DNA from: Mayamaea pseudoterrestris
Taxonomy: Eukaryota
Assembly (NCBI GenBank): GCA_027923505.1
Contig: BROI01000015.1
Location: forward strand, 186,001 to 250,000
DNA length: 64,000 nucleotides
Reading direction: 5' to 3'
In this document: piece by piece, positions 34,325 to 64,000 of the stretch
Layout of the letters: each line of letters starts with the position of its first letter
Position numbering within the stretch: position 1 is the stretch's first letter
Translations under genes and position numbers: made by a program
Notes under the pieces: model-generated
Told to the model about the DNA's origin: nothing
The model's input: only the letters and a program-made list of their open reading frames with translations
Database searches by the model: none

Positions 34325-34326
34325 AA

Positions 34327-35464: not shown

Positions 35465-35879
35465 TTAGCTGGCCTATACTGCTTGCCGAAGTCGAGCAGA
35501 ATACCGTGTCGCATGGGGTTTGCTGGTGCCTGCGCCGCGCTGGCTGATGCGAAGCGTGCTTATTCGGTCTGACTCGAGTCAGATCGGTCCCTTCCCCCTG
35601 CCGCAAGGTGCAAATTCCGGCGCGCAAAACACGTTTTCGGTACAAGGCCTACACAAATTTCTACGCGGACAATGTGTCTCGGGACTCAATAACGGTCAAC
35701 GGATTACATCGGCATTGGACAAAGTACGACGCGCCGGTACTCCCGCAAGGAACGACACGGCAGGTGCTACACACTAACTGGGCATTATTGCATACTAGCT
35801 AACAGGCAGGCTTCTAAGCATATAATACAGCGTGACCCCTTCCAGATGCTGGACCTGCCCAACAGGTTGGTCATGTGCA

Positions 35880-39929: not shown

Positions 39930-41345
39930 GTCCACGTCCTCAGCTGCGGGTGCAGTCATTTCAAAACGCCTGCGTGACTCATGTGGGTCTTAAATCTACT
40001 CAGATAGGCTTCAACATCATTTCAGCAGCAAGTTACATTATTGTGGTGTTATTGGGATGACGATAATGTTTTAGTTGGCCGTCTTAGTCTCTGATCTGCT
40101 GTGATATATGACATTTAAACGCCTCTGCAGATAATAGATGATCAAATCTTACCAGATAGGCGCCAACATCATTTTTGAGAGCTGCGCTACATGATGAGTA
40201 AGACTGGCTTTGATGTCTCAGGGGATGGCAATGATGTTGGTGACAACTTGTCACCAGTCTCAGCCTGTAGATGCCGTGACATTCAAACGTCCTTACAGCA
40301 GGCTCTGTTGCCCAATGGCCAGAATGGTGCTAGCATCATTATTTAGGCTGCGCTACAAGATGGTATGCCTGGCTGGTGTCTCAGGGGATGGCAATGATAT
40401 TTGGTGACAGCTTGTGCAGTCTCAGCCGCAGATGCCATGACATTCAAGCGCCCCTTCAGCAGGCCTGTATAGCCCAAATGAGACAAGAATGGTGCCAACA
40501 TTATTTTTGAGGCTGCGCTCGAGATGGTATGCTATTTGCGTCTCAGGGATGGCAATGTTATTGGTGACAGCTTGTCACCAGTCTCAGCCTGCAGATGCCG
40601 TGACATTCAACGCCTTTCTCCTAGCTGTACCCAATTGACACCAGAATGTGTGCCAACATCATTATTCAGCTGCGCTACAGCGGCCTTGCCTGGCTGGTGT
40701 CTCTCCCAGGGGATGGCAATGTGGTGACAACTTGTCACCCTCAGCCCGCGGATGCCGTGACGTTCAAAACCCTTTAGCCAGGCCCTGTTTCACTCAATTG
40801 ACACCAGAATGGGCCAACATCATTATTCGGGCTGCGCTACAGACGGTATGCCTGGCTGGTGTCTCCGGGGATGGCAATGATTGGTGACAGCTTGTCACCG
40901 TATCAGCCTGCAGATGCGGACATTCAACACGCCCCTTCAGCCCAGGCCATGTGTGCGCCCAAATGACACCAGAATGGGCCAGCATCATTATAGTGCCTGG
41001 CTGGTGTCTCAGGGGATGGCAATGATTTGGTGACACTTCGACGTCTCCAGCCTGCAGATGCCGACTTCAAGCGCCCCTACAGCAGGCCCTGTATACACCC
41101 AAATGCACCAATGTGCCCATCATTATTCAGGCTGCGTAAAGATGGTGCCTGGCTAGCGTCTAGAGTGGCGGCAATTTTGGGACAACTTGTCACCAGTTCA
41201 GCCTACAGATGCCGTGACATTCAAACACCATTCCCGCCCGCCTTTTCCGCCATGTCTGCTGGTTCGCTCTCTCCCCAACTACTTCTCTTCGCGCTACAAG
41301 ATGGTCGGCTAGTGTCTCGGGGATGGCAGTGTGTTTGGTGACACT
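39930..41345. repeat. 169-bp satellite block 1 (~8 degenerate monomers)
   Basis: Recurrent GTCTCAGGGGATGGCAATG...GGTGACA(A/G)CTTGTCACC; highly diverged at the left edge. Confidence 0.9.
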
Positions 41346-41350
41346 CGTTT

Positions 41351-44300
41351 TGTAACTTGTAAATCAAATCGTTGCACCTTTCGCTTGTAGCTGTCGCTTT
41401 GGCCAATCAAGCTTACAGTTGCCTCAATACAACGAATAAATTTTCTTAACTCTTCAGCTTGTAAGTCTCTTGTTTCTCTCTATATCTTACTAGTTTCAGC
41501 AATATGCTCGTTGAATCGCTTGAGCCTCGCTGCCACGCATCACGCGATCGTGGGCTGTGGTGAGCCGCGAGTGCCGCTGTGTCACCCTATCGGACTTCGG
41601 TGTGACTTGCCCGATTTTCGCTGTTTTTCGTTCGCATCCTGCAGCTCCCTCCAAGTCGCCATCCTATAGTTCGATTCCTTGAGAGCAGGTTCTTTAAGTG
41701 CTTGCTTGCCGTAGCCCGTGGAAGAAACTTGGTAAGTACATCCGCCGGGTTTTGTCGTTCCCATGTGTGGTTGAAATTAATATTCCGCCGCAATCGCTTC
41801 GCGTCACGGTGAAATGCCAGTGCATTGTGTCCTTCCGTCAGACTAGTGCGGTAGGTTGCTGCTTTGCGTTACCGACTTGTTGTCTCCCAACATCCATGAG
41901 GTCCGTCGGCGGAACTCCCAGCATGCGTAGCGTGGCGACGATCCATGATCTGCTCGTGCTCACTCTCGCTGCTACAAACTCCGAGCCGTACGTCGCCGTC
42001 TCGATCGTCGCGTTTTCAAAACCAATCCGCTGTTCCATTCAACATTGTGCCCATCGCTGCCCGTCCCGTCGTGTAGTCGTGGTACAGGTTCGCATCTTCG
42101 ACGTTGACATTCGCACCGCCTTGCCGCGCGGCGTGGGGCATGTTCCACGGAAGCTCTTCGCGTCTTGCCGTCACCTGTTCCCCAATCCATCTTGTCAACT
42201 GTGCGTATCGCTCGTCCGTTGGAGTCGAGCGTTGAATCGAATCGCTCCATCCGGGTATCTTCGTAAGTATCCGCAAATATGCTTCAACCGTTCCAAGTGC
42301 CCCGCTCGTGGCGCAGCTTCGGAATCTCCCCATAGTCATGACAGGCACAGTGAATGTCAGTCGACATAAACTTACTCCATTGCCACGCACCAATTATCGA
42401 TTGATGCTTCCGCAATTCCGTCGTGTCAAGTTCTTTCGTTTCGTCGAGTTCCGGATGGTCGCCGTCGCGTCGTGGACTTGTCTGCGGTCGCGGTTCCTCG
42501 CCGAACATTTCTTTGTAGTTCGCTGTGTCTTGTGCGTGCTTCTTCGCTCCGAAGCAGAGTACGCCGTCGTCGTCTCGCCAAACGTCTGCGCTCCAAATGA
42601 TATGCCAATGGACCGGCGCCCTTCGCCGTTGTGTTCTCAATTAAAAAGATTCGTTGTTCCTTCCGGTTCTTCTCGCTTCGCTTCATCGTCGACATCACCG
42701 CGTTTCGTGTGCGTGCCTTTCTCGCGCATCCCACACGTCGGTTCTGCGATCCGGCGCCGTGAAGCCAATGTCGCGGAAGCGTGTCTGCAAAGTGCTCGTG
42801 CGCAGCGTGCCCTGGCGTGCGGCCGTATAATGCCTTCCGTCGTGCGTGTGCCCTCGGGCTCCCCGAACTCCGGACCTGCCCACGATATAAACCTTCTCTT
42901 TCGTTTTCGCTTCCAAGTTCGTTGCCGCGTCAGCTGCCCACAGTTCCACCGTGGTTCCGCTAACATCGCTACCATTCGTGGCTTCGCTATTGACACAGCG
43001 CCCGAGTAAGCTGAATCGCTTCGGCGGCTCTGTCATGTGTCCTCCTGCGACGAGTCGTGCTTTCCGTCGCATCGGGACATCGATCTGTGCGTTTATTCGT
43101 TTCTGGCACCGCCAACCTCACTCCTTGATCTCGAGCTGTCGTAATCCATTTATCTGATTTAATTCCGTTCGTCGCATCTCCACAGCGTGTTGCCGTTGAT
43201 CTCGTCGACTTTCGCATCTTTATAATTGCGCGGCAACCTTACGCCGAATTTGTAGCGTACGCCGTTTGCTTTCGTTTTCGTTTCGCCGCTGTTGCCATCT
43301 GTCGCTTCTTTCCTTCCAGTGTAATGCTCCGCTCTTCCATCCTGGCTTTGGTAGCCGTGCTCGGTGCTTCTCTGCGATCGTTATCGGATCGTCCTTCTTC
43401 TTGATCGCAGCTCCCACGTCGTCGTTCCGTCAGTCCATTCGACGAGAGCGTTGCTTGAACTTCCTTTGTATGTCGGATCGTTCGGTTTCAAATTAAGCTT
43501 CGTGTCCGATTCCTTGGCCACTGGTCGCCGGATCGTTTCGTTTCTTCGTCCATCTGTGTTCGATTAAATCCGGTCGTTGTACTTATTAGTCTTTCGCTGG
43601 CTCCTCTCCCATTTGGATTAGGAAACCTTTCGTCGTTTCGAGTAGCTCGTTTCGCGTACTTCGATATATTCGCATACAGTCGCTCGCATTTTCTGACCGT
43701 TTTCGTGTTCCCTCGAACGTTCGTCCGATGAGTTCGCTTGGAGAGAACAGGGGGCATTTATTCCCTGATTCTTGCTCGCCCTTCTGAAGAACTTCGCTGG
43801 TACGTGGCGTGGTTCGCCATCCTGTTTCGTCGTCGTTTCCTTCGTGTTGTCGTGACTACTTTCTGTCACATGCGTGCTATGGTAGCGTCCTGTCGCGAGA
43901 TCTGGAGTTTCAAAATTTCGCTCGCTTGCGCGTGTAGCTTCTTCAATCTCCTCAGACTCAGAAGGAAGGCAACTCTCGTGGTAACAAGTAGCTGCGCGAG
44001 ACCCGTGGGCCGCGGAATCGCCTGAACGTGTCGTCCGTCAGAGCGAGAAAAGTCATGTGCGGACCGCTCTTCTCTGCGATGCCCACGAATCGGCCGTTGC
44101 CAGTCGTCCCCGAACTCCCCTGCGCCTCAGCGTGCCGGTTCCCCCGAAATGCTACAAAGGCGAAATATCGGCAGATTTCCGACGCACTTCCGTTGGCGTC
44201 GCCATCCCAGCGATTTCGTCGCGAGGGCGTTCGAGTATCATGATTACGAATTTAATCAGCAAAACCCAGCAATGGCCTGGCGAGCCCGAATCTCGTTGGA

Positions 44301-47300
44301 GGTTCTCCATCATTGGCTTAATGTGCGACGTGTGACGTTCGCATGGATTTTTGTTCTGGATGACCCCCGGTTCTGCTTGGTCGCGAGGTTTGTCATCCGA
44401 CGAGATCCCTCACAGCCGCCGTCTCCGACTTGGCGTTGTCGCTGAGCAGTCCGTTAGGGCGCCCACTTCGCGGATAAAATCCTCTAACGCGTTTTGACAT
44501 TTCGCTCTCCGGCTTCATCGGGTAGCCGCGCGTGTAAAACTTTCTCGTCAACAAAGAGCTGCATCTTAGTCAGCTCCCCATGCCCTAAATTCCATCATCC
44601 AGCTGGCGTGTCAGAGTGTATCGTGTCCGTGGCGAATAGTTCGCGCAACCGCTGAACGTTCGCGGCCGGAATGTGATTTCGTGAGGTGTCGAAATGGTAA
44701 TCGCGGGTGTGCGCTGAGATGATACCATGCTTCCGTGTGACGTAAAGTCTGTTGAGCGCGCTCTCGGGTCATCCGTGCGGCCGAAGAGCGTTATGTCCGT
44801 TTCCTTGCTTCTTAGCTTCCGCCGATTAACGCGTGAAAGCTGGGCGTGTCGCCGCACCGATTGATCAGTGCGTCAGGTTCGTCGCCAGTGCGTGTCGGCG
44901 TGTGCCGTTGCGGTGCGTGTACCGTCATCATCGGATCGTTCGTCGAAGATCCATAATCATGTCGTTGTCGATCGTGTGCGCGTGCTCGACTCGTAAACAG
45001 TCGAGTCCCACGGCGTCCGACGTTGTGCGTCGGTACATCCGTTCGAACGTGGGTTTCGTCGTCCAAGTACACCAGGCCATCGCGAATTGCCAATGGCAAA
45101 ACGTAGCCTCATGTTCGTCGTATTCGTTGCGTTCCGCCAAACGTGGTCGGAATATCGTCGGCGCGATGTCCCATTCGCGCAATTGTTCGGGCAATGAATC
45201 GTCGGTCCGTCTCGCTTTAAAGCATACTGGTGACACAGAAGCAGAATGGTTTCGCCACTAAGTCTTTGCCAGTCCAGCTGCAGTGCCAATCTTCGAGCTG
45301 GGACAATATGATCGTCAATACCAGTCCATCCACCTCGGCGTTCGTTTCCGAAGCGGCGGCATTCTCCTCCGCAAAGCCTCCGTTCGCGCCGCTGTCGATG
45401 AGCGCGCCTTCGTTGATCCGCTCGTAGTGTGCGCGTTGGCGCGCATCCGACGATGCTGTTGAAGCTGAGTGTACCTCGTCGGTGTTATCGGTCGTCAACG
45501 ATCCTGTCACTTGCTGAGTTGTAGTACTCGCGTTGTTCCGCTTGCAGAGCCGTCGTGCAGCCGTTTGGACTGACATTCCACTATTGCCGGGCTGAATATT
45601 AATCGTGCCAGGAACGCTTGCGTGATCGTTCGCTACAGATTCCGTCGCGTGACGCTCTTGATGCGCCGCGTTGACTTGCGTCTGCGTCGTAGCCGTGCCT
45701 CGTTGGTTGCGCGGTCGCCATCCGTTTTCGGGTGTGCTTGGGCGCCGTCGCGCGCTTGTCCTTCAACTGCTTTCGCTGATCAAACTTCATCTCCAGCCAG
45801 ACTTCATCCTTCCGCTCGCGTGAGGTTTCTTCATGATCGCTGCCGTCGTTCCGCCGATAAGCCGCCCGAGTCGCGCCGCCATTGCCGCCGCCGCCTCCTT
45901 TCGTTCACTAGACTGCGCTTGATTGATTGTGCGCTTCGTCTTCGTCGTCGATGGGTGTTTCTTGTCATACTTGATGCAGCACTCTTCTAAGTGCGCGTAC
46001 AACTGCGCGAAATTGTCTTCCAGTCGTGTTGCCCCATGTGTTTCTTGATGGCAATCATTCCGTCAAAACCTGCTAGTGATGCGCTGAATCCTGTGTGCTC
46101 GGAGAAAGCGTCGCGTAGCATGTCGTATCGTTGTAAACCTGTCAGAGCTTCTGCGTCCATTTCCGAGCAGCCAGATGACTTTCTTGTAGAACAGTGCGAG
46201 AAATTCGATCGTCGGCCGTGACCACTTCTCGGTCAGCCGCATTCCCTGCAGTTCCGTTCGCGCGCGTTCCTTCTCGATGTGAGCAGTAGCGCCTTCTTCG
46301 TATCGCGTTCGCAATCGTTGGTAGACTTCGCGTCCGTCCATCGTCTTCTTGAACTGCTGTACTGCGAGTGATGCAGACGGAGTTCGACAGTGCGTGAGAA
46401 AGATCCTGTATACAAACACATTCTTCTTTGCATACGCCTTCTGTTCTTTCCGGTCCCTTTTCCTTCGGGTCATAATCGTCGTCAAAGACTTCGTGGAAGT
46501 CATGCAATGTAGCGATGACTTTCAACTCGGAAATCCACTGTTTCCACGAGGAATCCAGCTTCATTTCTTTACAATCCCTCGCCGAGAACTTGATAGACTT
46601 CGTAAATTGGTCTGAATACTTCTCGTCGTCTTCGTCGTCGCCGAGGTCCAGTACGGATGTCGGTGACTGCTTCGTGTCAACGTCCACACTCGTCGGTGGC
46701 ACCTTGTCGGCCGAGTCAGGCTTCGACTCGTTGCCTTCGTTCGTTAGCGTGAGTCCTGGATTCGTCCTTCTTGGATTCCGTTTCGCTTTCCTTCGCTGGA
46801 GGTTTCGCTCCGCTTCCGCTGCCCACGCTCGCAATGTTGCGCGCTTGGACTCGTTCCTTCGCTCGTGCTGTGACGAACGTCGCCAGCGTTTCGGTGGTCA
46901 GTTGCGACCATGTCTTGATGTCCGGCGACTCTTGCGCCAAATACCATTCGATCGCGTTCGTGATCGTGCGTTGTTTCATCTTCGTTAGCGAGTGTTCGCT
47001 CGTTTCCTGCGTGACATTGTCGCCATCGTCAGTCGTCGTCGTTGTCGTCGTCGTGACGTTCCACTTCGTCGCGAAATCGTCGTACTCCATCTCGATCAGT
47101 TGCGTAAGCGATTCTACTCCGAGTTCGTCGAATAACTCCTTGAACTGAGGATCTTGGAAAACGCCTACGTTCTCTTCGTAAACATGCGCAAACGCCGCGT
47201 CTTTCTGCGCGCGAGTTTCCGCCATCGTTGTCGTCGTGACAATGTTCTTGCTATCACCTGCGGAACTTTCCGGGCCAAGAACCAACGTGCGTCCACGTTA

Positions 47301-47686
47301 CTTCGTAAATCAATAGTACTCTTCGTCGATAAAGTCTCTATGCCGAGGCAATGAGTCTCAAGACAGTGTTAATCTTGTAACTTGTAAATCAAATCGTTGC
47401 ACCTTTCGCTTGTAGCTGTCCTTGGATGGCCAATCCAAGCTTGCAGTTGCTACAATACGAGAGACGAATAAATCGCTTTCTTAACTCTTCAAGCTTAGTA
47501 AGTCTGCTTGTTTCTACTCTATATCGCACTAGTTTCAGCAATATACTTGTTGAATCGCTTCGAAGCCGTCGCTGCCACGCATCACGCGATCGTGAGGCTG
47601 TGGTGAGCCGCGAGTGCCGCTGTGTCACCCTATCGGACATTCGGTGTGACTTGCCCGATTTTCGCTGTTTTCGTTCGCATCCTGCA
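41351..47686 (-). mobile_element. Full-span CoDi-like Ty1/copia element (family A), two LTRs, coding region riddled with indels
   Basis: LTRs 41351-41643 and 47376-47686 (minus strand TGCAGG...GTTACA); PPT GGAGGGAG; gag MAETRAQK at 47225; PR ALIDSGANGG; RT RRKARLVAGGHMT; RH ETATYGSEFVAAR, NPADVLTKFL. Confidence 0.93.
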
Positions 47687-47888
47687 AGGAACGTGCGTCC
47701 GATGAGTTCGCTTGGAGAGAACAGAGGGCATTTATTCCCTGATTCTTGCTCAGCCCTTCTGAAGAACTTCGCTGGTACGTTGGCGTGGTTCGCCATCGGA
47801 ATTGTTTCGTCGTCGTTTCCTTCGTAGTTGTCGTGACTACTTTCTGTCACATGCGTGCTATGGTAGCGTCCCTATCGAGAGATCTGGA
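47687..47888 (-). mobile_element. Internal fragment of a second family-A copy abutting the 5' LTR
   Basis: Near-duplicate of ~43714-43906 (GTCCGATGAGTTCGCTTGGAGAGAACAG...ATGGTAGCGTCC...GAGATCTGGA). Confidence 0.85.
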
Positions 47889-48212
47889 CTGAGGCTGCTG
47901 GTTCGAGTTGCGATCGAATCAAGCGAAGAAAAAGCAAAAATTCACTGGTTGCACGGGTTTGTCACGAACGAACGATGGGGAGTCGCGGACCCTGGGGAGT
48001 GCACAAAGATGCGCCGAGCCCGAAACGCCGCAGGAAAAACTGAAAAGTGACATTCCCCCGCGAGACGAAAATGCCAGCTGAAACGGAAGACGAGTTAGCA
48101 CTATGACGCGCAAAGCTAGGGGAGTAGCAGGTTGCACACGAAAAACAGCAACCAGAGCGATACCTTTACTTGTCATAGTGCATGGTGCCTTGTATGCAGC
48201 ATATAGTACACT

Positions 48213-48286
48213 AGCAGACGGAAAAGTAGCAGCGTGTTTAGAGGTGATATAGCCGGTTATCCTTGGTTCGATTCCGAGGTGCGCTA
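48213..48286 (+). pseudogene. tRNA-like sequence (degenerate tRNA or B-box element)
   Basis: Well-formed T-arm CTTGG-TTCGATT-CCGAG, 3' GTGCGCTA followed by CTTTT; acceptor stem pairs only 5/7 and the anticodon stem does not pair. Confidence 0.3.
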
Positions 48287-48329
48287 CTTTTAACGGCATA
48301 GTGATACTACTTTCTGTTGCATACCTGCT

Positions 48330-49165
48330 AGATGCAATAACATTCGAATGCCTTTAATGCAAGCCCTGTAGGTGCCCAAATTACATTAGAATGATGCCAA
48401 CATCATTTTTAGGCTGCACTACAAGATGGTAAGATTGGCTAGCATCTTAGGTGATGGCAATGTATTTGGTGACAACTTGTCACCAGTCTCAGCCCACAGA
48501 TGTTGTGACATTCAAACGCTCCTAACGCAAGCCCTGTAGGTGCCCAATTTACACCAGAATGGTGCCAACATCATTATTCAGTCTGCGCTACTAGACGATA
48601 TGCCTGGCTGGTGTCTCAGGGGATGGCAATGTATTTGGTGACAACTTGTCACCAATCTCAGCCCGCAGATGCCATGACATTCAAACGCCCCTACAGCAGG
48701 CCCTGTAGGTGCCCAAATTACACCAGAATGGTGCCAACATCATTTTTCAGGCTGCGCTACAAGTTGGTGGGCTTGGCTTGTGTCTCAGGGGATGGCAATG
48801 CATTTGGTGACAACTTGTCACCAGTCTCAGCCCACAGATGCCATGACATTCAAACCTCCCTACAGCAGGCCCTGTAGGTGCCCAAATTACACTAGAATGG
48901 TGCCAACATCATTTTTCAGGCTGCGCTGCAACATGATATGCATAGTTGGCGTCTTTAGGATGGCAATGTATTTGGTGACAACTTGTCACCAGTCTCAGCC
49001 TGCAGATGCCGTGACATTCAAACGCCCCTATAGCAGGCCCTGTAGGTGCCCAAATTACACCAGAATGGTGCCAACATCATTATTCAGTCTGAGCTACAAG
49101 ATGATAAGTCTGGCTGGTGTCTCAGTGGATGGCAATGTATTTGGTGACAACTTGGCACCAATCTC
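48330..49165. repeat. 169-bp satellite block 2 (~5 monomers)
   Basis: GTGTCTCAG motif at 48611, 48780, 49117; period 169. Confidence 0.95.
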
Positions 49166-52800: not shown

Positions 52801-54860
52801 ATTTGGTGACAACTTGTCACCAGTCTCAGCCCGCAGATGCCGTGACATTCAAACACCCCTACAGCCAGCCCTGCAGGTGCCCAAATTACTCCAGGATGGT
52901 GCCAACATCATTATTCCGGCTGCACTACACGATGGTAGGCTTGGCTGGTGTCTCAGGGGATGGCAATGTATTTGGTGACAACTTGTCACCAGTCTCAGCC
53001 AGCAGATGCCGCGACATTCAAACACCCCTACAGCAAGCCCTGTAGGGGCTCAAATTACACCAGAATGGTGCCAACATCCTTATTCAGGCTGCGCTACAAG
53101 ATGGTAGACTTGGCTGGTGTCTCAGGGGATGGCAATGTATTTGGTGACAACTTGTCACCAGTCTCAGCCAGCAGATGCTGGAACATTCAAATGCCCCTAC
53201 AGCAAGCCCTGTAGGGGCCCAAACTACACGAGAATATGCCAACATCATTCTTCAGTCTGCGCTACAAGATGGTAGGCTTGGCTGGTGTCTCAGGGGATGG
53301 CAATGTATTTGGTGACAACTTGTCACCAGTCTCAGCCCGCAGATGCCGTGACATTCAAACACCCCTACAGCCAGCCCTGCAGGTGCCCAAATTACTCCAG
53401 GATGGTGCCAACATCATTATTCCGGCTGCACTACATGATGGTAGGCTTGGCTGGTGTCTCAGGGGATGGCAATGTATTTGGTGACAACTTGTCACCAGTT
53501 TCAGCCAGCAGATGCTGGAACATTCAAATGCCCCTACAGCAAGCCCTGTAGGGGCCCAAATTACACCGGAATGGTGCCAACATCCTTATTCAGGCTGCGC
53601 TACAAGATGGTAGGCTTGGCTGGTGTCTCAGGGGATGGCAATGTATTTGGTGACAACTTGTCACCAGTCTCAGCCAGCAGATGCTGGAACATTCAAATGC
53701 CCCTACAGCAAGCCCTGTATACACCCAAATTACACCAGAATGGTGCCAACAATCAGCCGCCGAATTGGACGCCAGCAGCCACCAAGCCCGCCAAATACCC
53801 AGAATGAACCAACATCATTAATCAAGCTGTGCTACAAGATGGTCAGCTTGGCTGGTTTCTCAGGGGATGGCAATGTATTTGGTGACAACTTGTCACCAGT
53901 CTCAACCCGCAGATGCCGTGACATTCAAACGCCCCTACAGCGAGCCCTGTAGGAGCCCAAAATACACCAGAATGGTGCCAACATCATTATTCAAGCTGCG
54001 CTACAAGATGGTAGGCTTGGCTGGTGTCTCAGGGGATGGCAATGTATTTGGTGACAACTTGTCACCAATCTCAGCCACAGATGCCATGACATTCAAACGC
54101 CCCTACAGCAAGCCCTGTAGGTGCCAAAACTACACCAGAATAGTGCCAACATCATTATTCATGCTGCGCTACAAGATGGTAGGCTTGGCTGGTGTCTCAG
54201 GGGACGGCAATGTATTTGGTGACAACTTGTCACCAGTCTCAGCCCGCAGATGCCGTGACATTCAAACACCCCTACAGCAAGCCCTGTAGGTGCCCAAATT
54301 ACACCAGAATGGTGCCAACATCATTATTCAGGCTGCGCTACAAAATGGTAGGCTTGGCTGGTGTCTCAGGAGATATCAATGTATTTGGTGACAACTTATC
54401 ACCAGCAGATGCCATGACATTCAAATGCCCCTACAGCAAGCCCTGTAGGTGCCCAAAATACACCAGAATGGTGCCAACATCATTATTCAGCCTGCGCTAC
54501 TAGATGGTAGGCTTGGCTGGTGTCTCAGGGGATGGCAATGTATTTGGTGACAACTTGTCACCAGTCTCAGCCCGCAGACGCTGTGACATTCAAACGCCCC
54601 CTACAGCAAGCCCTGTAGGTGCCCAACATACACCCGAATGGTACCAACATTATTATTCAGGCTGCGCTACAAGATGGTAGGCTTGGCTGGTGTCTCAGGG
54701 GATGGCAATGTATTTGGTGACAACTTGTCACCAGTCTCAGCCCGCAGATGCCGTGACATTCAAACGCCCCTACAGCAAGCCCTGTAGGTGCCCAAAATAC
54801 ACCAGAATGGTGCCAACATCATTAATCAGGCTGCGCTACAAGATGGTAGGCTTGGTTGGT
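49879..54860. repeat. 169-bp satellite block 3 (~30 monomers, highly homogeneous)
   Basis: Consensus TGACATTCAAACGCCCCTACAGCAAGCCCTGTAGGTGCCCAAATTACACCAGAATGGTGCCAACATCATTATTCAGGCTGCGCTACAAGATGGTAGGCTTGGCTGGTGTCTCAGGGGATGGCAATGTATTTGGTGACAACTTGTCACCAGTCTCAGCCCGCAGATGCCG; e.g. 53285, 53454, 53623. Confidence 0.98.
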
Positions 54861-55054
54861 GTCGGCAACGTCTGTCAATCAACCGAAGCGCGCAAGGCTT
54901 CAATCGGACCACTGATGGTGCCCAAAGACACCAGAAGTGCCAACAACTTTTTCGCCTCCGCCAGCGTAGGCTTGGCTGGTCGAGCCCAGGGCGTTTGGGA
55001 CATCACCAGTCTGAGGACGCTGCTGCCGTGACAATCAAACATACCCGGCACGCC

Positions 55055-55572
55055 TGTAGCGTTACATCAATTGTCGCCATGGTGGAGGTTGATCAGAGGA
55101 ATCGGACTCGCTGCAGACGAATGTGTCACAATAGCTCCCTCGCTCGTTCTTGCTCTCGAAGCACTGAAATGTTAATCTAACACCGTTGACGATTTCGCAG
55201 TCAACGTCTTACCTCCAAAAAGCTCCGATACAGGGTCCTTGGCCACGGTCTGTACAGCTCTTGATGGAGATGGCTCGTCGAATAGTCTTGCGCTCGCCAC
55301 TACACGAATACGACTGCACTCTCGTCGCAAACTAGTAGTTCTATATTGTGAGCTTATCGCTACATCGCTACATCGACCACTCGGAAGATCATCCGATCAA
55401 TCCGTTTCTTTCAATCACATTACATCAGTCGTAACTGGTCGTTCCATTCATACAACGCATCCACACGACGGTTGCGCACTTTCTTCATTCACATGTCACA
55501 TACGACAGCTGCGGACTCGACACAAGCTAATTAGGGTTCGGGCTCTTGACTTCGCCGCTCTGCGACTTGTCA
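55055..55572 (-). mobile_element. Partial tandem copy of family-B copia: complete 395-bp LTR (55178-55572), leader and gag start
   Basis: LTR matches 55575-55969; 55055-55177 matches 61761-61885 with a few differences. Confidence 0.93.
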
Positions 55573-55574
55573 CT

Positions 55575-58500
55575 TAACACCGTTGACGATTTCGCAGTCA
55601 ACGTCTTACCTCCAAAAAGCTCCGATACAGGGTCCTTGGCCACGGTCTGTACAGCTCTTGATGGAGATGGCTCGTCGAATAGTCTTGCGCTCGCCACTAC
55701 ACGAATACGACTGCACTCTCGTCGCAAACTAGTAGTTCTATATTGTGAGCTTATCGCTACATCGCTACATCGACCACTCGGAAGATCATCCGATCAATCC
55801 GTTTCTTTCAATCACATTACATCAGTCGTAACTGGTCGTTCCATTCATACAACGCATCCACACGACGGTTGCGCACTTTCTTCATTCACATGTCACATAC
55901 GACAGCTGCGGACTCGACACAAGCTAATTAGGGTTCGGGCTCTTGACTTCGCCGCTCTGCGACTTGTCACTCCCCTCGGGTACGCTGCTCGTCGTAGCCG
56001 CATTCTTGTCCTTCACAATCGCATACGATGTATCGCCGCGCCAAAACAATACTGGCTTGAGCAATGGCATCGCATCACAGTACGGCAGGTACTTCGTCAG
56101 TACGTCCGCAATGTTCTCCTTTCCGTCAATCTTCACAAACTTGATAATCCCCGCAGCAACTGCCCAACGAACACGATGGTAGGCCAACGCATTGTGTCGC
56201 TTGGACAATGTCGAACTCGGGATTGTAGATTGCGTAATCACTGCTTGGTTGTCTCCGTACATCCAGGCAGACTTCTCCAATGGTACGCCCATAGCCATGA
56301 GCGACGCGCGTAGAGAAATGCTGATATCCGTTCCACTCTTTGCTACGCCGAATTCCGATCCGAAGGTCGCAGTCTCGACTGTAGCCTGGAGTTTGCAATG
56401 CCAGTCGACAGGCGTCTGGTTGACAAATGACAAAACTCCTTCCAATGACTTGCCTGTCACCATGCAATGCATGAGACACGCATCCTCGAAAGTTGATGTT
56501 CGTACAGTCACACCCTTTGGCGGTGGGTAGACGTCCAACATCTCATCAACTCCGTCCTTCCCGTAAACGCTGCGCTCCCAATCTTGTTCCTCCATGGTGC
56601 CGAAGTGCTCCTCGTTGGCTGGCCACTTCGTACGGAAACGGATTGCTGCGTCCGGTAACTCTCGCAAATATCCACAGACTCGCTTCACCCGCTGCAGGTG
56701 TCCCTTGCGCGGCTCCACACGGAATCGCGACAGACTCACAACTGCTACGGCAATGTCAAATCGTCCCAAAGTAATCGCCCACTGAAGTGCTCCGACTAGA
56801 GACTGGTAAATCTTCTTCTCTTGGTCGTTCAGTAGCTCGCTTTGGTCAAGTTCTGGATGATCGTCTTTGTCGATTGGTGATGAGTACTTCTTCGGAGGAC
56901 CTTCAAACAAACGCTCGTACTGCGCCAAGAGTTTCGCAACGTAGGTCTTGGCCGACCAGTAAAGAGTTCCGTCAGGGTCTCGTCCAAAGTCACCGCCGAG
57001 ATGATACTCGGGATGTCCAACACCTTTGAGCTTAAACTTGTACTTCTCCTCTAGCATCTTGAAGAACGCTGCTGGATCGTCTGAAATATTCAACAGATCG
57101 TCGACCCATACACAGAGGTAGTCGTAGCTGTCGCCGGCGTCCTTGATCCACAGATCGGAATCGCAATAGGACGGCTTCCACCCTTCCGCAAGTAGGGCGT
57201 CGGCTAAGCGTTCGTGAAATCGTGCTCCGCTCGTTCGCAATCCGTACAAAGCCTTGACGATGACCAGGATGTGTCCTTCGCGCTCCCCGAACTCGGGGCC
57301 TCCAACGAAGTATACCTTCTCCTTGGTGAACGCTTCGAGATAAGCATTCCCAATGTCACCGACCATGCACTTCTTGCCGTTCGCTTCTCCAATGACGAGA
57401 GCTAGACGCATTGCCTTCAATGAGATAACACTGGAGTAGGCATCGTCGTTGTCTTTCGTCATGTGGCCGCCTGCAACGAGACGTGCCTTGTATCGCAAAT
57501 CGTGCTTGACATCGTACACAAAATGGACTCGGATCTTTTGGTAACCAGTTGGTGGTGCTGTGGTGGAACTCGGACCAAGATCTTGAAACGTCTCGTACTC
57601 GTCCAGGTTCGCAAGCTCCACGCCTTCCGCATCCGTCCACTTCGTGTGCCCTGCAGCTTCCTGCAAACGTCGCGCTTCCTTCCAATCTCGGGGTACTTGG
57701 ACTCCAAACTTGTAGCGCGGTCCGTTCTTCTGCTGCTCCATTCGGGCGATCGCCACCTTGCGCGCAACCTTCTTGGCGTTCCGGGCCCATCGATTCAACG
57801 ATGCCCATCCGTCCTTGTCGAGAAGATTATGCTTTTGCGCGTAGGCTGCCACTGATACTTTGTCGCTTTCGATCATCGCGTTGAGAGGCTCCCAAGTCTT
57901 GGATCCATCGTCCCATTGTACAAGGACGTTCCACTTGGAGTGCTTCCAGTTCTTCGACTTGCTCGTCAGCGGACCCTGATGGTCTAGAATCTCCTTGAAG
58001 AACCATTTACGCTCAGGATTCGCCATGTCTTGGTTCACTTCGGCCTCGTAGAGATCGGAAACCTCGACATAGGACATGACTTCGTCCGCTTCGCCGTTAC
58101 CAAGCTTCAGCATCATTTTAATGTTCTGATGGTTCTGGGCGTCGCGGTTGTTCAGCTTGCTCATGACGGTCGCTCGAACTTCTTGCCCGTCGTCCGTCTT
58201 CATGAGAAACGACTTGCCGATAAGTTCATCGGGTGCATACTTCGGAAGTTTGCGCCACGGATTGATGTTCTTCTTCTTCGGCTTGTCGTCGTCGTCATCG
58301 GCAGGATTAGGATCTAGCTCCCCGTCGGTCATATCGTCGTCTTCCGGGTATTCCACCGTCTCGACCAAAGGGGTATCGTCTTCGTCAGGAATGAAAGAAT
58401 CATCGTCTCTGCTGTCGGCGTCGGTAATCTTCTTGATCATTTCCGGCATAAGGATCTCGCCACCTAGACCAGGTACGGTATAGAGACGCGGCTCCCCTTC

Positions 58501-61500
58501 TTTCATGACTGGGGAAGCAGGTGCCGGTACGCGAAGGTTCAAAAATTTTGGGTCGTTTCGGGGTAAGCAAACCGATCGCGTCATGATCTCGTGGGTCTCG
58601 CAATCGCAGATGAAGTACGTCAGGTCGTCTCCGCACGTCGTGTTGGGACCAAGCCAGTACGCCGCGCGCTGGCGGGTACCCGGGGCCTCGACATCCTTGA
58701 CAAAGTAGTTGACAATTTCAAACCAACGAAAATGCAAATACTTCGACACGTCGGGGACTTGCCCAGTGATAAACTCGATGGGAGACTTGCCGTCCAAGGC
58801 AGGATGCGACAAATGACGGTACATCTCGGTCTGAAAGAGTAAAGCGCGTAGCCAGAAGCATGCCGGAGTGCCCGTTCGGTCCATAAGTCGTTCATGACTT
58901 TCCTTTACGTGCCCGATGATGCGCTCGGCTGGATTTTGATTCTGGTAGTACGGCTCCGATGTATGACGACGGCGAATCATGAACTCGCGCATTACTTCGT
59001 CAAACTCGGCACTCATCGCTTCTTTCGCATTATCCGAGAAGACTTCCAACGGAGCTCCAAACTCGCGGATGAAATCACGGAATCGTTTCGGTACGTCACC
59101 TTTCGTCCGCATGGGATACACGACAATGATCTGACTGCGACAACCATAGAATAGCTGCACGCATGTGCACCCTGCATGTCCGTCGATATGATCATCCATG
59201 GCTGGTTCGTCGAAGAACATGGTGTCATGGGCCACTCGATCATCTAGACGGTAGACGTTCAGGAATCGGCTCTTTCGATGCATTCGTGGGGGGTATCGGC
59301 GCTCGTGCATGTTGAACTGCGTGCTGTGGCGCAAAGTATCCTTGATCGTCTGCGCCGGGTACCATGCAAAGTTCGGCAGCAATGCGTCGATATCAGGTTT
59401 CTTTGGCAGGATAGACTTGTAGGGCTGATAGACGAGATCCGCATTGTACTTCTGTACGACGGCACAAACATTCAGCTCCTTCTCGGTGTAAACAGGTTGA
59501 TTGTCGTGTCCGAGATTCGTATAAGTCACGTTGCTCTGACGATGGGTGCGATTCCGCGTACGCGAACGTGTCACGCGCGTGAAGCCCTCTTCGTCGTCAC
59601 TGTCTTCGTCGTCTTCGTCGCGCGACAACAAGTCCGGTACGTCGTCCTCGTCGTCATCGTCATCCGAAGAGTCATAGTCGTCGTCCTCGGTCGGCTCGAC
59701 GTCAAACTCATTCGGATCCCAAGGTCCATCGAAGGTCATCATGACCCGAGGTAAGGTGTGAAGCTCATGCGCCGACACTGGAAACATTGGCAAGGTCGCC
59801 ATGCCACTTTCCATTCCGAGCATAAACTTGTATCCATCTGGCGTTTCGATTCGTAACTTGCCACCAAAGTTGTAATGCTTGTCGTTGACATGAAGTCCGA
59901 AGGCTTCCATCTGCATACTCGAATGAATCGTCTTGCCGGTTCCAGAATATGCGTAATTATGGAACTCGCCGACGACCCAACCCTTGGTGCTCTTAAGCTT
60001 GGCGACTGCTGTGACGGTAGACAGGTCCGGAAGTTTGAGACCACCGACTCCAGTGACTTCAATCTTGTGGAACTTGTCCTCGGTAAGGATGCGGCCGTCC
60101 GCTCCCCATACTCCGCCACTCGCGCCGCGATCGACAGTCGACGCTGAATGCTTATCCAAGTCAATGCTCGCGACTTTGTACTTGCGACTCTGAGCAATAT
60201 TTGCTCCCCGAGTCGTAGTCGTGGGCTGGTCTGGACCTAAGAAACTTCGCATCGCTGAGCCACGGCTGGTGTTGTTCACACGCTCGGTCGCCGCACTCGC
60301 CGTCGTTGCCGCTGATGAAGTGGCTGCGACGTTCGCGTTGCGTGTTGTACTCGTCGTCTGCGTGGTGCCTGCCTGTGTTGCTGATGTCGAACCACCTGCA
60401 GCACTGGCCGCTCGACTCGTACCACGGCGTTCAAACACTTCGTGTTGCTGATCGCGGGTAAGGAGTCGCCACGTGTTTGGTGGAATCGTCGCATTCACGT
60501 CGCTGGGAATTTCGATCGTCTTCGTGTCGGCATAGCTGCGAACATACGAACGAGTATCTCCCCGACCGCGGCCGCCGCCGCCGCCTCGTCCCGTGCTCAA
60601 GTCGCCGCGACCACCGCCCCCCTGATTGGATTGCTGATTGTTGCTGCTACTTGGCGTAGACTGGGAATTGTTCGCGCTTGCCTTCTTCGTCTTCTCCTTC
60701 TCTTTCTTGGTTTGCTCAGATTGGTTCGCCTGGCGCTTCTCGGTCTCCTTGATGCCACGACGATTGTCAGATTGACGTGCGACGTCGTTCAGGAGGTTCC
60801 AAAACTGGGTGTACGTCATCGGGTTGCCGGTCTTGGACTCTTCGATCAGCGCCATGTTCACCGCCGCTGCCATATCCGCATGGCGGAAAACCGCGCGCTC
60901 CAAAATCTGACGCTTCGTGCTTGCTGTAAGTAGCTCGGTTTCCTCGGCGTAGTCATTGTAGTTCTCTTCCTTGCTGGACCACTGGATAAGCCAATTGACG
61001 AGAGACTTGGCGTAACTCGCGTCGAGAGTGAAATTGCGCCATTCGTCTTCGGCCGAACGTAGATCCAACTTGCGCGCCATCCCGTCGAGGAATGTCGCCT
61101 CCAACTCTGCAATGCACGCTGAGGCATTCGCGCTGTCGATGTGCTTGCGGACAATGAGCTTGCTCTGCGGTGTCTTGCAGGTATACTCGAGCGCCGCTAA
61201 AAGCTTCGAACACTGATACTGATACTCGGCGAATTCGGGCTCGAGTGCAGCTGGTGCCTTGAACTCGTCGTCCCAAAAGTAGCCAAGTCGCTCGCTTCGC
61301 ATGCGGTTCTTGAAGGCCCGCCAGTAGGAGCAGAACTTGCGATCGTTCTTGAGCTCCAGCATGGTCTTCAGATCCAGCTTGATGTCGTGTCGCTTCGTCG
61401 TGGTGTCGTTGCCTCCGATAACGCTAAAGTCTCCGAAACTGCGGTTGCCTGCTGTCGGTGACCCCGGCGCTACTGGGAGGTCTCGGCTCGTAATCTGGTC

Positions 61501-62204
61501 TTTCTCCAAGTCTTGCCATTGCGCAGTCGTCCGACGTTGCTCGTGAATCCAACTCATGAGCTTGCGCAATCGGCTTGTTCGTATCGTCGACCACTGGTAC
61601 TGGGTCTTAATGTTCGTCACGTCTTGTTCCGACAGTTCGGCCATCGCCTCCGCAGTCGTGAGTTCCTCTTGCTCGAAACACACTGCGGTAGGGTCGTTTG
61701 GATCCCAAGCTGCGGACGCTGCGAGCCACGGAATATCGAAGACTTTACCGACGGCACGCTTGTAGGTCGTTACATCAATCGTCGTCATGGTGGAGGTTGA
61801 TCAGAGGAATCGGACTCGCTGCAGACGAATGTGTCACGATAGCTCCCTCGCTCGTTCTCGCTCTCGAAGCACTGAAATGTTAATCTAACACCGTTGACGA
61901 TTTCGCAGTCAACGTCTTACCTCCAAAAAGCTCCGATACAGGGTCCTTGGCCACGGTCTGTACAGCTCTTGATGGAGATGGCTCGTCGAATAGTCTTGCG
62001 CTCGCCACTACACGAATACGACTGCACTCTCGTCGCAAACTAGTAGTTCTATATTGTGAGCTTATCGCTACATCGCTACATCGACCACTCGGAAGATCAT
62101 CCGATCAATCCGTTTCTTTCAATCACATTACATCAGTCGTAACTGGTCGTTCCATTCATACAACGCATCCACACGACGGTTGCGCACTTTCTTCATTCAC
62201 ATGT
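55575..62204 (-). mobile_element. Coding-intact CoDi-like Ty1/copia element (family B); 3' LTR 55575-55969, 5' LTR 61886-62204 (outer ~76 bp missing)
   Basis: Matching LTRs, PPT GAGGGGAG at 55970-55977 (minus strand), single long ORF. Confidence 0.97.
55924..61788 (-). CDS. Gag-Pol polyprotein, 1954 aa (Gag-PR-IN-chromo-like-RT-RNase H)
   Basis: PR TVDRGASGG; IN VAHDTM / FSDNAKE / NQNPAER (DDE); RT YKARLVAGGH, DIGNAYLEA, KALYGL, VWVDDLL; RH FEDA, ETATFGSE, GDNQAV, NIADVLTK; stop codon lies inside the 3' LTR. Confidence 0.98.
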   Translation of the reverse strand: MTTIDVTTYKRAVGKVFDIPWLAASAAWDPNDPTAVCFEQEELTTAEAMAELSEQDVTNIKTQYQWSTIRTSRLRKLMSWIHEQRRTTAQWQDLEKDQITSRDLPVAPGSPTAGNRSFGDFSVIGGNDTTTKRHDIKLDLKTMLELKNDRKFCSYWRAFKNRMRSERLGYFWDDEFKAPAALEPEFAEYQYQCSKLLAALEYTCKTPQSKLIVRKHIDSANASACIAELEATFLDGMARKLDLRSAEDEWRNFTLDASYAKSLVNWLIQWSSKEENYNDYAEETELLTASTKRQILERAVFRHADMAAAVNMALIEESKTGNPMTYTQFWNLLNDVARQSDNRRGIKETEKRQANQSEQTKKEKEKTKKASANNSQSTPSSSNNQQSNQGGGGRGDLSTGRGGGGGRGRGDTRSYVRSYADTKTIEIPSDVNATIPPNTWRLLTRDQQHEVFERRGTSRAASAAGGSTSATQAGTTQTTSTTRNANVAATSSAATTASAATERVNNTSRGSAMRSFLGPDQPTTTTRGANIAQSRKYKVASIDLDKHSASTVDRGASGGVWGADGRILTEDKFHKIEVTGVGGLKLPDLSTVTAVAKLKSTKGWVVGEFHNYAYSGTGKTIHSSMQMEAFGLHVNDKHYNFGGKLRIETPDGYKFMLGMESGMATLPMFPVSAHELHTLPRVMMTFDGPWDPNEFDVEPTEDDDYDSSDDDDDEDDVPDLLSRDEDDEDSDDEEGFTRVTRSRTRNRTHRQSNVTYTNLGHDNQPVYTEKELNVCAVVQKYNADLVYQPYKSILPKKPDIDALLPNFAWYPAQTIKDTLRHSTQFNMHERRYPPRMHRKSRFLNVYRLDDRVAHDTMFFDEPAMDDHIDGHAGCTCVQLFYGCRSQIIVVYPMRTKGDVPKRFRDFIREFGAPLEVFSDNAKEAMSAEFDEVMREFMIRRRHTSEPYYQNQNPAERIIGHVKESHERLMDRTGTPACFWLRALLFQTEMYRHLSHPALDGKSPIEFITGQVPDVSKYLHFRWFEIVNYFVKDVEAPGTRQRAAYWLGPNTTCGDDLTYFICDCETHEIMTRSVCLPRNDPKFLNLRVPAPASPVMKEGEPRLYTVPGLGGEILMPEMIKKITDADSRDDDSFIPDEDDTPLVETVEYPEDDDMTDGELDPNPADDDDDKPKKKNINPWRKLPKYAPDELIGKSFLMKTDDGQEVRATVMSKLNNRDAQNHQNIKMMLKLGNGEADEVMSYVEVSDLYEAEVNQDMANPERKWFFKEILDHQGPLTSKSKNWKHSKWNVLVQWDDGSKTWEPLNAMIESDKVSVAAYAQKHNLLDKDGWASLNRWARNAKKVARKVAIARMEQQKNGPRYKFGVQVPRDWKEARRLQEAAGHTKWTDAEGVELANLDEYETFQDLGPSSTTAPPTGYQKIRVHFVYDVKHDLRYKARLVAGGHMTKDNDDAYSSVISLKAMRLALVIGEANGKKCMVGDIGNAYLEAFTKEKVYFVGGPEFGEREGHILVIVKALYGLRTSGARFHERLADALLAEGWKPSYCDSDLWIKDAGDSYDYLCVWVDDLLNISDDPAAFFKMLEEKYKFKLKGVGHPEYHLGGDFGRDPDGTLYWSAKTYVAKLLAQYERLFEGPPKKYSSPIDKDDHPELDQSELLNDQEKKIYQSLVGALQWAITLGRFDIAVAVVSLSRFRVEPRKGHLQRVKRVCGYLRELPDAAIRFRTKWPANEEHFGTMEEQDWERSVYGKDGVDEMLDVYPPPKGVTVRTSTFEDACLMHCMVTGKSLEGVLSFVNQTPVDWHCKLQATVETATFGSEFGVAKSGTDISISLRASLMAMGVPLEKSAWMYGDNQAVITQSTIPSSTLSKRHNALAYHRVRWAVAAGIIKFVKIDGKENIADVLTKYLPYCDAMPLLKPVLFWRGDTSYAIVKDKNAATTSSVPEGSDKSQSGEVKSPNPN

Positions 62205-62830
62205 AAGAAGCCCCCCCACAAAAGTACAGAACGCACCGCTTCCAGGTAGGTGTTACCGACATTGGCAGCCCAAAACTTAAGGTCGTTCAGTTCAGCTAAC
62301 AAAGCTATAGTTCGGATGCTTTGCATAGAGACAACACCGGAGTAGGCAGAGTCCTTGGGCGGAGTGGTTGAATGTCCCCCAGTGATGAGTCCGGCCTTAC
62401 GTTGTAGGTCGTTCTTGCAGTCAAAGACAAGATGCGCGTTGATGCGTTTCCAATCACTTTCCATGAAGGCACCAATGCCCCTGTCAATGAAAGTGTCATA
62501 CTTGTGTAGCTGCTCCATCTCAGTCTTGATGGCGTCAGCCCATAGTGTGTTTCCATTAGCAGCGTCAAGGTTGCTTGCTTCCTTCCAAGTATTAGGAACT
62601 TGAACGCCAAACTTATAAGGTGCTTCTTGGACATGGTTCTTCTTTGCAGCCTTGTACATGCGGTTAAACAGTTTAGTGCATCCTGCCATGTGCTTCAAGC
62701 GCTTCCATCCAGCCTTGTCCAACATACCCTTGTGCTTGCTGTACTCGGCAACGGTGACAGGGTCAGACTTTACAATCAGTGCGAGTGGTTCCCAGGTCTT
62801 CTTGCCATTTGCCCATTTGACACGATGCAG
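62205..62830 (-). pseudogene. Decayed fragment of another CoDi-like copia (chromo-like end plus RT start)
   Basis: VKWANGKKTWEPL, YKFGVQVP, LVFDCKNDLQRKAGLITGGH, NVGNTYLEA. Confidence 0.88.
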
Positions 62831-64000
62831 TTCCAGTTCGTACGGCTGCAACGATTCCTCACCCTCTGTAGTCGGTTTCCAAGTGAGCGGGATGATCAGT
62901 CCTTTACCTTGGTTTATCCTACAGGGGTCTTATCCTACAAAACGCTAGTTGATTAAGCAGTTCTCTAGAAAGTGAGTTGATTTACGATCGGTCGAGAAAG
63001 AGCGATTGATCAGATGGCTCTTTCAAGACCATTCACGATAGTGAATACTAATCTTGTTTAATCGTGCCTGCGGCTGGCACACATGCAATATTTCAATGAC
63101 GTAGTTGTGAGTAGATGTCTTTTCTGGTACCGCAACGGAGGTTCGAGTACTATGCTCGTGCGCCCCCGGCGACGTCTAGGTTCGCGTCAAGCGACTGGAC
63201 TAGATCGTCATTGTGACACTCCCCTTGTAGGTGTGCCAGGACAGGTGTAAGCTCAATGAGCTCCCCTGGAGTCGGCTCCCCTTGAGGCAGTGACGGGTCC
63301 ATAAGGTAGAATTCGAGTTCTCCAGGATCCAAGGTTTCGCCACGCCAGAACAGTAATGGTTTGAGTAGGGGCCATGCGTCGATGTAGGGTAGGTATTTGG
63401 TAAGCGCGTCGGAAGCGTTTTCCTTGCCAGCAATCTTGACGAACTTGATAATTCCGGCTGCTACACACCACCGGATACGGTGATATGCGAGGGCATTGTG
63501 GCGCTTGGTGAGTGTGGATGTAGGCACTGTACACTGCGTGATGACTGATTGGTTATCACCGAGTAGCCATGAAGAGGACTCGATGGGAACACCCATTGCC
63601 ATGAGTGACGCGCGTATGCCTAGGATATGGTCGGTTGCAACGCGTCCGCTCATGAGTTCAGAGCCAAAGGTCGCGTGTTCGACGGTATCTTGAAGTTTGG
63701 CAAACCACTTGAACGGAGTCTGCTGAATGAAGTGAAGGATTCCAGTGCATGCTTTGCCGGTGACTTTGCAATGCATCAGGTTGGCATCTTTGAGGGTAGT
63801 AAGGCGAACTGTCTTGCCCTTTGGTTTCGGCCAGAGTGAAAGGACCTCTTCCTTGGGGTTGTCGTAGACGGTTTGTTGCCAGTCATAGGTTGGTGAGTCG
63901 CCGAAGATGATTTCGTTCTGCGGCCACTGGGTGCGAAAGCGGATGGCTGCCTCGGGAAACTTGCGAAGGTAGCCGCATACACGCTTTACTCGGTCGAGGT
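62830..64000 (-). mobile_element. 3' end of a further CoDi-like copia (RT end, RNase H, PPT, 3' LTR starting at 63218); continues beyond the window
   Basis: HCKVTGKACTG, VEHATFGSE, GDNQSV, KRHNALAYHR, NASDALTK; minus strand AAGGGGAG then TGTCACAATG; left LTR end approximate. Confidence 0.92.

Follow-up and report, generated by a model that had tools for sequence, protein, structure and literature searches.

Human alpha satellite (171 bp) and CEN178 of Arabidopsis are the familiar nucleosome-sized satellites, and chromoviruses operate by tethering to silent chromatin through a chromodomain. Diatom genomes, to our knowledge, are usually described as compact and satellite-poor, and we know of experimentally defined diatom centromeres only as short sequences of low guanine-plus-cytosine (GC) content without repeats. 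Here we analyse 64,000 nucleotides of the Mayamaea pseudoterrestris genome (GenBank assembly GCA_027923505.1, contig BROI01000015.1, positions 186,001 to 250,000; hereafter the window), the right part of which holds an array of a 169-bp satellite interrupted and flanked by Ty1/copia retrotransposons, several of them with a chromodomain-like module behind the integrase.

The closest described systems, following the accessible text of the sources cited, are of several kinds. In diatoms, the integrases of CoDi-A copia elements end in a putative chromodomain (Llorens et al. 2009, PMC2774666), which Ustyantsev et al. 2017 placed alongside those of chromoviruses and of the oomycete Chronos elements (PMC5348765). 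A chromodomain in a diatom copia element is therefore a known feature and not a new one, having been described in 2009. Elsewhere among stramenopiles, long terminal repeat (LTR) elements mark the centromeres of Phytophthora sojae (the copia-like CoLT; PMC7082073) and of Ectocarpus (the chromodomain LTR element ECR-1; 10.1101/2024.05.11.593484), and in Ectocarpus a 98-bp satellite, whose monomers carry telomere-like motifs, adjoins most telomeres (10.1101/2024.05.11.593484). Among diatoms, the centromeres of Phaeodactylum tricornutum, located by CENP-A chromatin immunoprecipitation (ChIP) and episome maintenance, have <33% GC over at least 500 bp and are reported as lacking repeats (10.1101/096016), and those predicted for the naviculoid Fistulifera solaris, in part tested on episomes, have 36–42% GC over 1.4–2 kb and are described as free of highly repeated elements (10.1101/2021.11.10.468027). 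LTR elements of P. tricornutum are methylated (PMC9266582). No description of a nucleosome-sized diatom satellite, of a diatom satellite centromere or of such nesting of copia elements was found in the literature accessible without subscription, preprint supplements aside.

On balance, we think it probable that the locus is an interstitial, silent and cytosine-methylated island in the compact genome of a raphid diatom, and that it acts as a landing pad for copia elements with a CoDi-type chromo-integrase. Under this model an old array of the 169-bp satellite, CpG-methylated, would repeatedly receive CoDi-type Ty1/copia insertions. The chromo module fused to the integrase would tether the pre-integration complex to a silent-chromatin mark, so that new insertions would enter satellite or earlier copies and would spare the adjacent dense genes, and copies would persist in the island since selection against insertions there is presumably weak. 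A 19-bp palindrome within the monomer would probably bind a protein or form a hairpin, and so keep the repeat recognisable.

Satellite array and copia elements

The window switches abruptly from dense genes to a stretch of at least 30 kb without any Pfam match other than to transposable elements (TEs). This island begins at about 34.0 kb and not at 39.93 kb, where the initial annotation had set its start, with a 176-bp tandem repeat and a first copia element (copia-1) preceding the 169-bp satellite, and its right limit lies beyond the window end (64000). Among the 10 open reading frames (ORFs) of at least 150 amino acids scanned between 39930 and 64000, the sole curated Pfam match above cut-off is RVT_2, the copia reverse transcriptase (RT), in an ORF of 1958 amino acids, in line with the earlier description of the region as gene-free. 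The satellite, delimited by self-BLAST and by a monomer hidden Markov model (HMM) made from the main array, totals about 7.1 kb between 40.1 and 55.1 kb in four blocks, all in + orientation; at least five pieces of Ty1/copia origin lie within it or beside it. The features of the island are as follows.

34327–35141 (+): tandem repeat of 176 bp in about 4.6 copies, marking the island's left edge; sequence unrelated to the 169-mer
35826–39600 (+): copia-1, a Ty1/copia pol remnant over several ORFs; RVT_2 at E 5.4e-17, chromo-like module not detected
40142–41343 (+): satellite block 1, a subfamily diverged from the main array (~78%) in about 7 monomers, interrupted by 45 bp of foreign sequence at 41243–41287
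41346–47686 (−): TE2, an old copia element; TG...CA LTRs 90.8% alike, pol frameshifted, left flank satellite
43289–43491 (−): chromo-like module in TE2, split over two frames by a frameshift (module HMM)
47689–48322 (−): TE2-like fragment; its first 200 bases resemble TE2 interior 43715–43906 (93.5%)
48323–49163 (+): satellite block 2, with 4 complete monomers and 2 partial ones (Tandem Repeats Finder, self-BLAST, monomer HMM)
49164–49878 (−): 5′-truncated copy of the young copia family, with the pol end and 3′ LTR; 94.8–96.6% to the young element
49879–53751 (+): satellite block 3, the main array, 23 monomers (Tandem Repeats Finder, monomer HMM)
53799–55058 (+): satellite block 4, 6 monomers plus a partial and a degenerate one; main part to 54863, degenerate monomer at 54927–55058
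55046–62204 (−): young copia element; single open frame of 1958 amino acids (P0001) at 55924–61800, LTR of 397 bp
57724–58032 (−): chromo-fold module of the young element (predicted), intact; P0001 residues ~1257–1359, between integrase and RT, HMM 132 bits
62205–62817 (−): fragment Y, of a third copia family; C-terminal part of the module and start of the RT, 40.7% amino acid identity to P0001
62627–62824 (−): chromo-like module in fragment Y, N-terminally truncated (module HMM)
62818–64000, continuing past the window end (−): element X, a further copia element; RNase H with 64.6% amino acid identity to P0001, probable LTR

Tandem Repeats Finder reported a period of 169 at 48330–49165, 50025–50384, 50407–53751 (20 copies, 89% matches) and 53793–54863, and a period of 162/163 in the diverged array at 40151–40991. 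With the monomer HMM, 39 monomers scored >90 bits and several partial ones were found besides, so that the count of about 43 given in the initial annotation is a fair one; the nucleosome-sized satellite with nested copia elements that it described is plainly seen. The array is old and not homogenised. Mean pairwise identity between monomers is 0.89–0.92 at distances of 1 to 30 units, about 91% throughout, and over these distances the array shows no higher-order repeat, no periodic identity peak and no homogenised core.

The satellite blocks have a GC content of 47.8–52.3%, equal to or above the window mean, and a marked deficit of CpG, with observed/expected ratios of 0.25–0.46 compared with 1.06 in the genes and 1.17–1.51 in the copia elements; the satellite ratio for TpG+CpA is 1.63–1.69. 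At the four CpG sites of the one consensus from which decay was calculated, C is replaced by T in 11.7% and G by A in 19.4% of cells, as against 1.4% for other C and 3.3% for other G positions, so that decay at satellite CpG sites is 6–8 times faster than at other C/G sites. Because of this depletion and this CpG-specific decay, we infer that the satellite is CpG-methylated. The initial annotation had offered a heterochromatin block or a centromere; a heterochromatin-like state fits both observations, and the heterochromatin half of that interpretation is reasonably supported by indirect evidence, the centromere half being the doubtful one (see below).

A 19-bp palindrome (9+1+9, consensus columns 89–107) is what the monomers conserve best, with a mean conservation of 0.977 compared with 0.89 elsewhere; the stretch that it occupies ranks 2 of 148. 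It is intact in 30 of the 39 monomers and still recognisable in the diverged block 1. Folded as a single strand, the whole monomer does no better than shuffles (z −1.06), and only the local palindrome is distinct. The junction between TE2 and the satellite falls within the palindrome and that of the truncated copy just past it, two cases being too few to claim an insertion-site preference.

The satellite is probably not confined to this locus. Public sequencing runs were searched with the gene-plus-copia stretch 28001–38000, which returned eight runs from two studies, all as contigs, and four of these (X1, X2, X3 and X5) were compared with window positions 44001–64000. Over eleven satellite bins, mean depth is ~826 in X2, ~277 in X3 and ~44,000 in X5, with neighbouring TE contigs at 29.6, 16.6 and ~1,700, respectively, giving ratios of ~28, ~17 and ~26; over the four runs the ratio is about 17–28. 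Contig depth is no copy number, and the resulting estimate is rough and presumes that each contig was placed once; this seems to be so, because the bin 55340–56006, which holds LTR copies present three times in the stretch, lies below the neighbouring depth (in X3 one long contig accounts for all of it). Read in this rough way, the contigs suggest 120–220 kb of satellite per genome compared with 7 kb here. Confinement to a single locus, which the initial annotation had named as speaking against its interpretation, is thus improbable, the contig mass in the four runs suggesting more satellite in the genome than the locus holds.

The window stretch alone would give 207 unitigs at k=31, 174 of them satellite, and the contigs matched to it number 680 in X2 (462 of which fit two places) and 373 in X3, with a range of 373 to 67,091 over the runs. 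The contig counts of X1 and X5 were rejected as a sign of extra satellite variants, as contigs of this kind can stem from sequencing errors once depth reaches the thousands. A metagenome scan with a 45-base stretch of the monomer gave 0 matches. The same scan with a 20-base palindrome gave 38 loci with a single match each, which were taken as chance and not as satellite; at these loci the monomer HMM aligns only 22–68 bases round the palindrome, and tblastn with P0001 gave none.

Blocks 3 and 4 of the array are kept apart by 47 foreign bases (53752–53798); this insert and the one of 45 bases at 41243–41287 break the satellite phase, and most of the satellite contigs from the public runs continue uninterrupted across the site equivalent to 53751. 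Runs labelled as other organisms hold just 10–13% of the words of the gene stretch 28001–38000. Yet their contigs (X2 and X3) for TE2 (44237–47687), the young copia element (55644–61452) and element X (62818–64000) have identities of ~98.7–99.9%, and satellite is present as well. Similarity to the window thus appears much higher for the transposons than for the genes. A recent exchange of transposons or a hybrid origin would be consistent with this, which is given as a lead only.

Copia elements of very different ages sit within the satellite and within one another: the LTRs of the young element are 100% identical, its truncated relative is 94.8–96.6% similar to it and the LTRs of TE2 are 90.8% alike. 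The LTR end of the truncated copy joins the satellite cleanly between 49163 and 49164, and beyond the copy the monomer phase resumes, minus 14 bp of satellite; since the phase runs on across it, the copy must have entered a continuous satellite array. TE2 adjoins the TE2-like fragment, its right flank being similar to its own interior, and shows no target-site duplication (flanks CGTTT and AGGAA). Fragment Y is cut on both sides, by the young element at 62204 and by X at 62818, a nesting of TE within TE.

The young element is itself irregular. Two 100% identical 397-bp LTR copies lie head to tail, meeting between 55574 and 55575, with 2 polypurine-tract bases separating them; the first 132 bases of the leader are duplicated after the LTR pair (55046–55177, ~5% diverged), and the 5′ LTR is shortened to 320 bp by a cut at 62204. 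As the 5′ LTR is truncated, no target-site duplication can be read. The element does not look like a simple integrase insertion and resembles an LTR–LTR circle junction or a tandem element, or else an assembly artefact. Its product P0001 matches RVT_2 over residues 1417–1628 (E 9.1e-21, 75 bits, cut-off 31.6); in the stretch before the RT, Pfam gives only a marginal rve match (E 0.13), and a SDNAKE motif at residue 922, which we take to be that of the integrase, and an acidic/PR region both precede the RT (1417).

Two further observations on these elements come from the runs. In X1, a low-depth contig links satellite (window position 48999) to the end of the young LTR (61885) with the same monomer phase as at the junction between 49163 and 49164; it could stem from a further insertion, into the equivalent position of another monomer, or be a misplaced copy of the known junction, its short side measuring 26 bases. 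Over TE2 positions 44284–45937, the rows listed from a comparison with contigs of the four runs contain 22 single-base differences (331 further rows exist), 14 of which have G in the window and A in the runs; 6 of the 14 lie in CpG and 9 have C next, a strand-biased pattern. Several 1-base TE2 indels are common to all four runs.

The chromo-like module and its possible role in targeting

Directly after the putative integrase, three elements of the window carry a module that, on structural modelling, has a chromo or chromoshadow fold. The initial annotation had counted at least three copia elements with such a module, and the module HMM finds three, one intact (young element), one frameshifted (TE2) and one truncated (fragment Y), with no match in copia-1. 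The module is kept in all 120 of the 120 relatives examined among the protein-search matches, and matches to it at E ≤ 0.001 were obtained from 1098 cluster representatives. Two cluster members of the young-copia family (P0393 and P0396) are filed in public databases as 'uncultured Marinobacter sp.', the likeliest cause being a bacterial genome bin that took in a eukaryotic contig; a cluster look-up of 8 copia relatives gave no other organism name.

The AlphaFold model of the module (mean predicted local distance difference test 89.5, predicted template modelling score 0.72) has strands at 14–21, 37–42 and 47–51 followed by helices at 52–69, and it shows the three-stranded sheet packed on a C-terminal helix that is found in chromodomains; the part of P0001 compared with chromo and chromoshadow domains spans residues 1265–1340. 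The top Foldseek rows are chromodomains of Rhino, HP1, CBX, MPP8 and Swi6, with probabilities up to 0.97. Re-alignment by VIA gave Z scores of 5.8–7.4 to chromo and chromoshadow domains (up to 7.4 for Chd1; 6.1 for the HP1 chromodomain 1kna, with a root-mean-square deviation (rmsd) of 1.7 Å over 49 residues), all below 8 and so in the range common for shared arrangements. A scan of 48,161 chains made independently of Foldseek filled the rows at Z ≥ 5 with chromo and chromoshadow domains (best Z 7.2, rmsd 3.7, 68 aligned) and placed unrelated chains at Z of about 3–4. The chromodomain-like label of the initial annotation is thus upheld, as a predicted chromo-type fold, by AlphaFold, Foldseek, VIA and the unbiased scan. 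In the module alignment, position 12 is aromatic (W, F or Y in the 25 sequences listed), W42 is near-invariant and a G, S or N stands three residues past W42; by HP1 numbering, position 12 and W42 are presumably two of the three aromatic-cage residues.

Several points weigh against a methylated landing pad used through this module. Pfam Chromo (PF00385) does not match the 92-residue module at E ≤ 10, PDB sequences searched at E ≤ 10 with a profile of 50 module sequences yield no chromodomain, the Foldseek E-values are 0.15 or worse, and the fold call leans on the consistency of the lists and not on the score; the third cage position, presumably the one past W42 on the same numbering, appears as Gly, Ser or Asn. 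What points to a heterochromatin state is the decay of dinucleotides at no more than 4 CpG sites in a single consensus, and the TEs of the island, even the old TE2, are not CpG-depleted (1.17–1.51), which is odd for long-methylated DNA. The junction at the truncated copy is the only clean one of integrase type with the satellite, the rest being truncated or rearranged. Targeting by the module is what we infer, and passive survival of insertions outside genes would look identical.

The last point leads to a reading without targeting, in which copia elements insert at random and are retained in neutral satellite, the module having another role in the polyprotein such as chromoshadow-like multimerisation. 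It would account for the presence in the same island of copia-1, which lacks the module, for the single clean integrase junction in the satellite, with most others lying TE in TE or rearranged, and for the seeming absence of the third cage aromatic; the best structural matches, moreover, include as many chromoshadow domains, which dimerise, as chromodomains that bind methyl-lysine. It fits poorly with the conservation of the module in 120 of 120 relatives and with its place exactly at the integrase C-terminus, where the targeting chromodomains of chromoviruses, Chronos and ECR-1 are found, and the gene-rich left 34 kb of the window contain no copia insertion. We consider this reading improbable.

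Chromosomal position and surroundings

An interstitial heterochromatin island of this kind would be set apart from two other places where satellites accumulate. The array might mark the centromere of its chromosome or lie in the pericentromere, in which case, as the initial annotation proposed, this lineage would have satellite centromeres like those of plants, colonised by centrophilic chromo-copia elements. The nucleosome-sized monomer, the gene-free island bordering dense genes and the 19-bp dyad as the most conserved part of the monomer all agree with this, as does the occurrence of LTR-element-marked centromeres in other stramenopiles (CoLT and ECR-1, in the accessible text on them). The rough figure of 120–220 kb per genome would come to about one 7-kb array per chromosome, given a few dozen chromosomes (a number that we assume); this figure comes from contigs, which give no copy number, with single placement presumed. 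The satellite's GC content of 48–52% is unlike that of the low-GC centromeres reported as repeat-free in P. tricornutum and F. solaris, and no stretch of <33% GC over 500 bp occurs anywhere in the window, the minimum being 38.6% at 25913, in its gene part. The array is also short (7 kb) and about 91% alike at all distances, with neither a higher-order repeat nor a homogenised core. We consider a centromere here unlikely, and it is quite doubtful that the satellite marks the centromeres of Mayamaea-like diatoms in general, with about one array of 5–10 kb per chromosome, the palindrome as a kinetochore-protein or non-B-DNA signal and the CoDi-type chromo-copia elements as centrophilic.

Alternatively, the array could be part of the heterochromatin of a chromosome end, subtelomeric or otherwise terminal, as in Ectocarpus, whose satellite at the telomeres documents this position in a stramenopile (10.1101/2024.05.11.593484). 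The island does continue off the right end of the window, and a satellite at many loci, on the rough estimate above, would be equally compatible with one and with two arrays per chromosome. The 169-mer differs from the subtelomeric monomers of Ectocarpus, which according to the accessible text carry motifs of the TTAGGG/CCCTAA type: the window holds no run of two or more such units and the satellite blocks not one such hexamer. To the right of the array lie at least 9 kb of copia sequence in which no chromosome end is reached. We judge a terminal position to be distinctly improbable.

Under the favoured reading as ordinary interstitial heterochromatin, the locus would be a tidy and unsurprising case of a known pattern. 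If the centromere reading were true, diatom centromeres would not be uniformly low in GC and free of repeats, and the combination of satellite and chromo-retrotransposon at a centromere would have an origin separate from that in plants, involving copia and not gypsy elements. The locus offers a concrete system for studying how diatom heterochromatin is built up and kept, and whether the CoDi chromo module targets integration, and it raises the answerable question of whether all diatoms have centromeres of the Phaeodactylum type.

Dense ordinary genes fill the left 34 kb of the window, among them those for asparagine synthase, a UbiA prenyltransferase, a Na/H exchanger, a Kelch protein, a methyltransferase, a JmjC protein and MYG1; no tRNA gene and no Rfam family was found in the window. 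The MYG1 ORF (29684–31048, −) is 93% identical to a protein of the freshwater diatom Mayamaea pseudoterrestris, in agreement with the diatom origin proposed in the initial annotation, and its next named relatives are from Seminavis, Nitzschia, Pseudo-nitzschia and Amphora (57–64%). The ESM Atlas returned the family of this ORF without a useful taxon. Judged from its sequence, the host is a raphid pennate diatom near Mayamaea. At the boundary between genes and repeats, segments of about 100 bp flank the 176-bp repeat on both sides (34047–34324 and 35247–35464, ~82% alike), and the whole of 34047–35464 may be an LTR-like or foldback-type structure.

Comparison with described systems

With alpha satellite and CEN178, the 169-mer shares a monomer of about 170 bp, head-to-tail arrays and invasion by retrotransposons; unlike them, the array here is only about 7 kb long and ~91% alike, without higher-order repeats. 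The centromeres of P. tricornutum and F. solaris, which are also from pennate diatoms and also intergenic, are, as far as the accessible text goes, short, low in GC and without abundant repeats, whereas this locus has 48–52% GC, tandem repeats and many transposons. ECR-1 of Ectocarpus and CoLT of P. sojae are likewise stramenopile LTR elements clustered in one gene-poor region, and each shares one trait more with the elements described here, ECR-1 an integrase chromodomain and CoLT its copia affiliation. The centromere regions that they occupy are, in the accessible text, without such a satellite, and the link to the centromere comes there from Hi-C or CENP-A ChIP.

Chromoviruses, which are Ty3/gypsy elements and include the centromeric retrotransposons CRM of plants, likewise have a chromo-fold module at the integrase C-terminus and nest in satellite or otherwise repeat-rich DNA, and the mechanism proposed here, tethering to silent chromatin, would be alike. 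They differ in being gypsy elements, the elements here being copia, with a putative integrase ahead of the RT and with a module that Pfam Chromo does not detect; because the superfamily is a different one, the module would have been acquired independently of chromoviruses. In domain features, the closest likeness is to CoDi-A (CoDi-I), although an association with satellites is not mentioned in the accessible text of PMC2774666. Both are found in diatoms, both carry a putative chromodomain where the integrase ends (PMC2774666, PMC5348765) and both would have the domain order of copia; the module-bearing copia family found here is a large one, present in many environmental assemblies.

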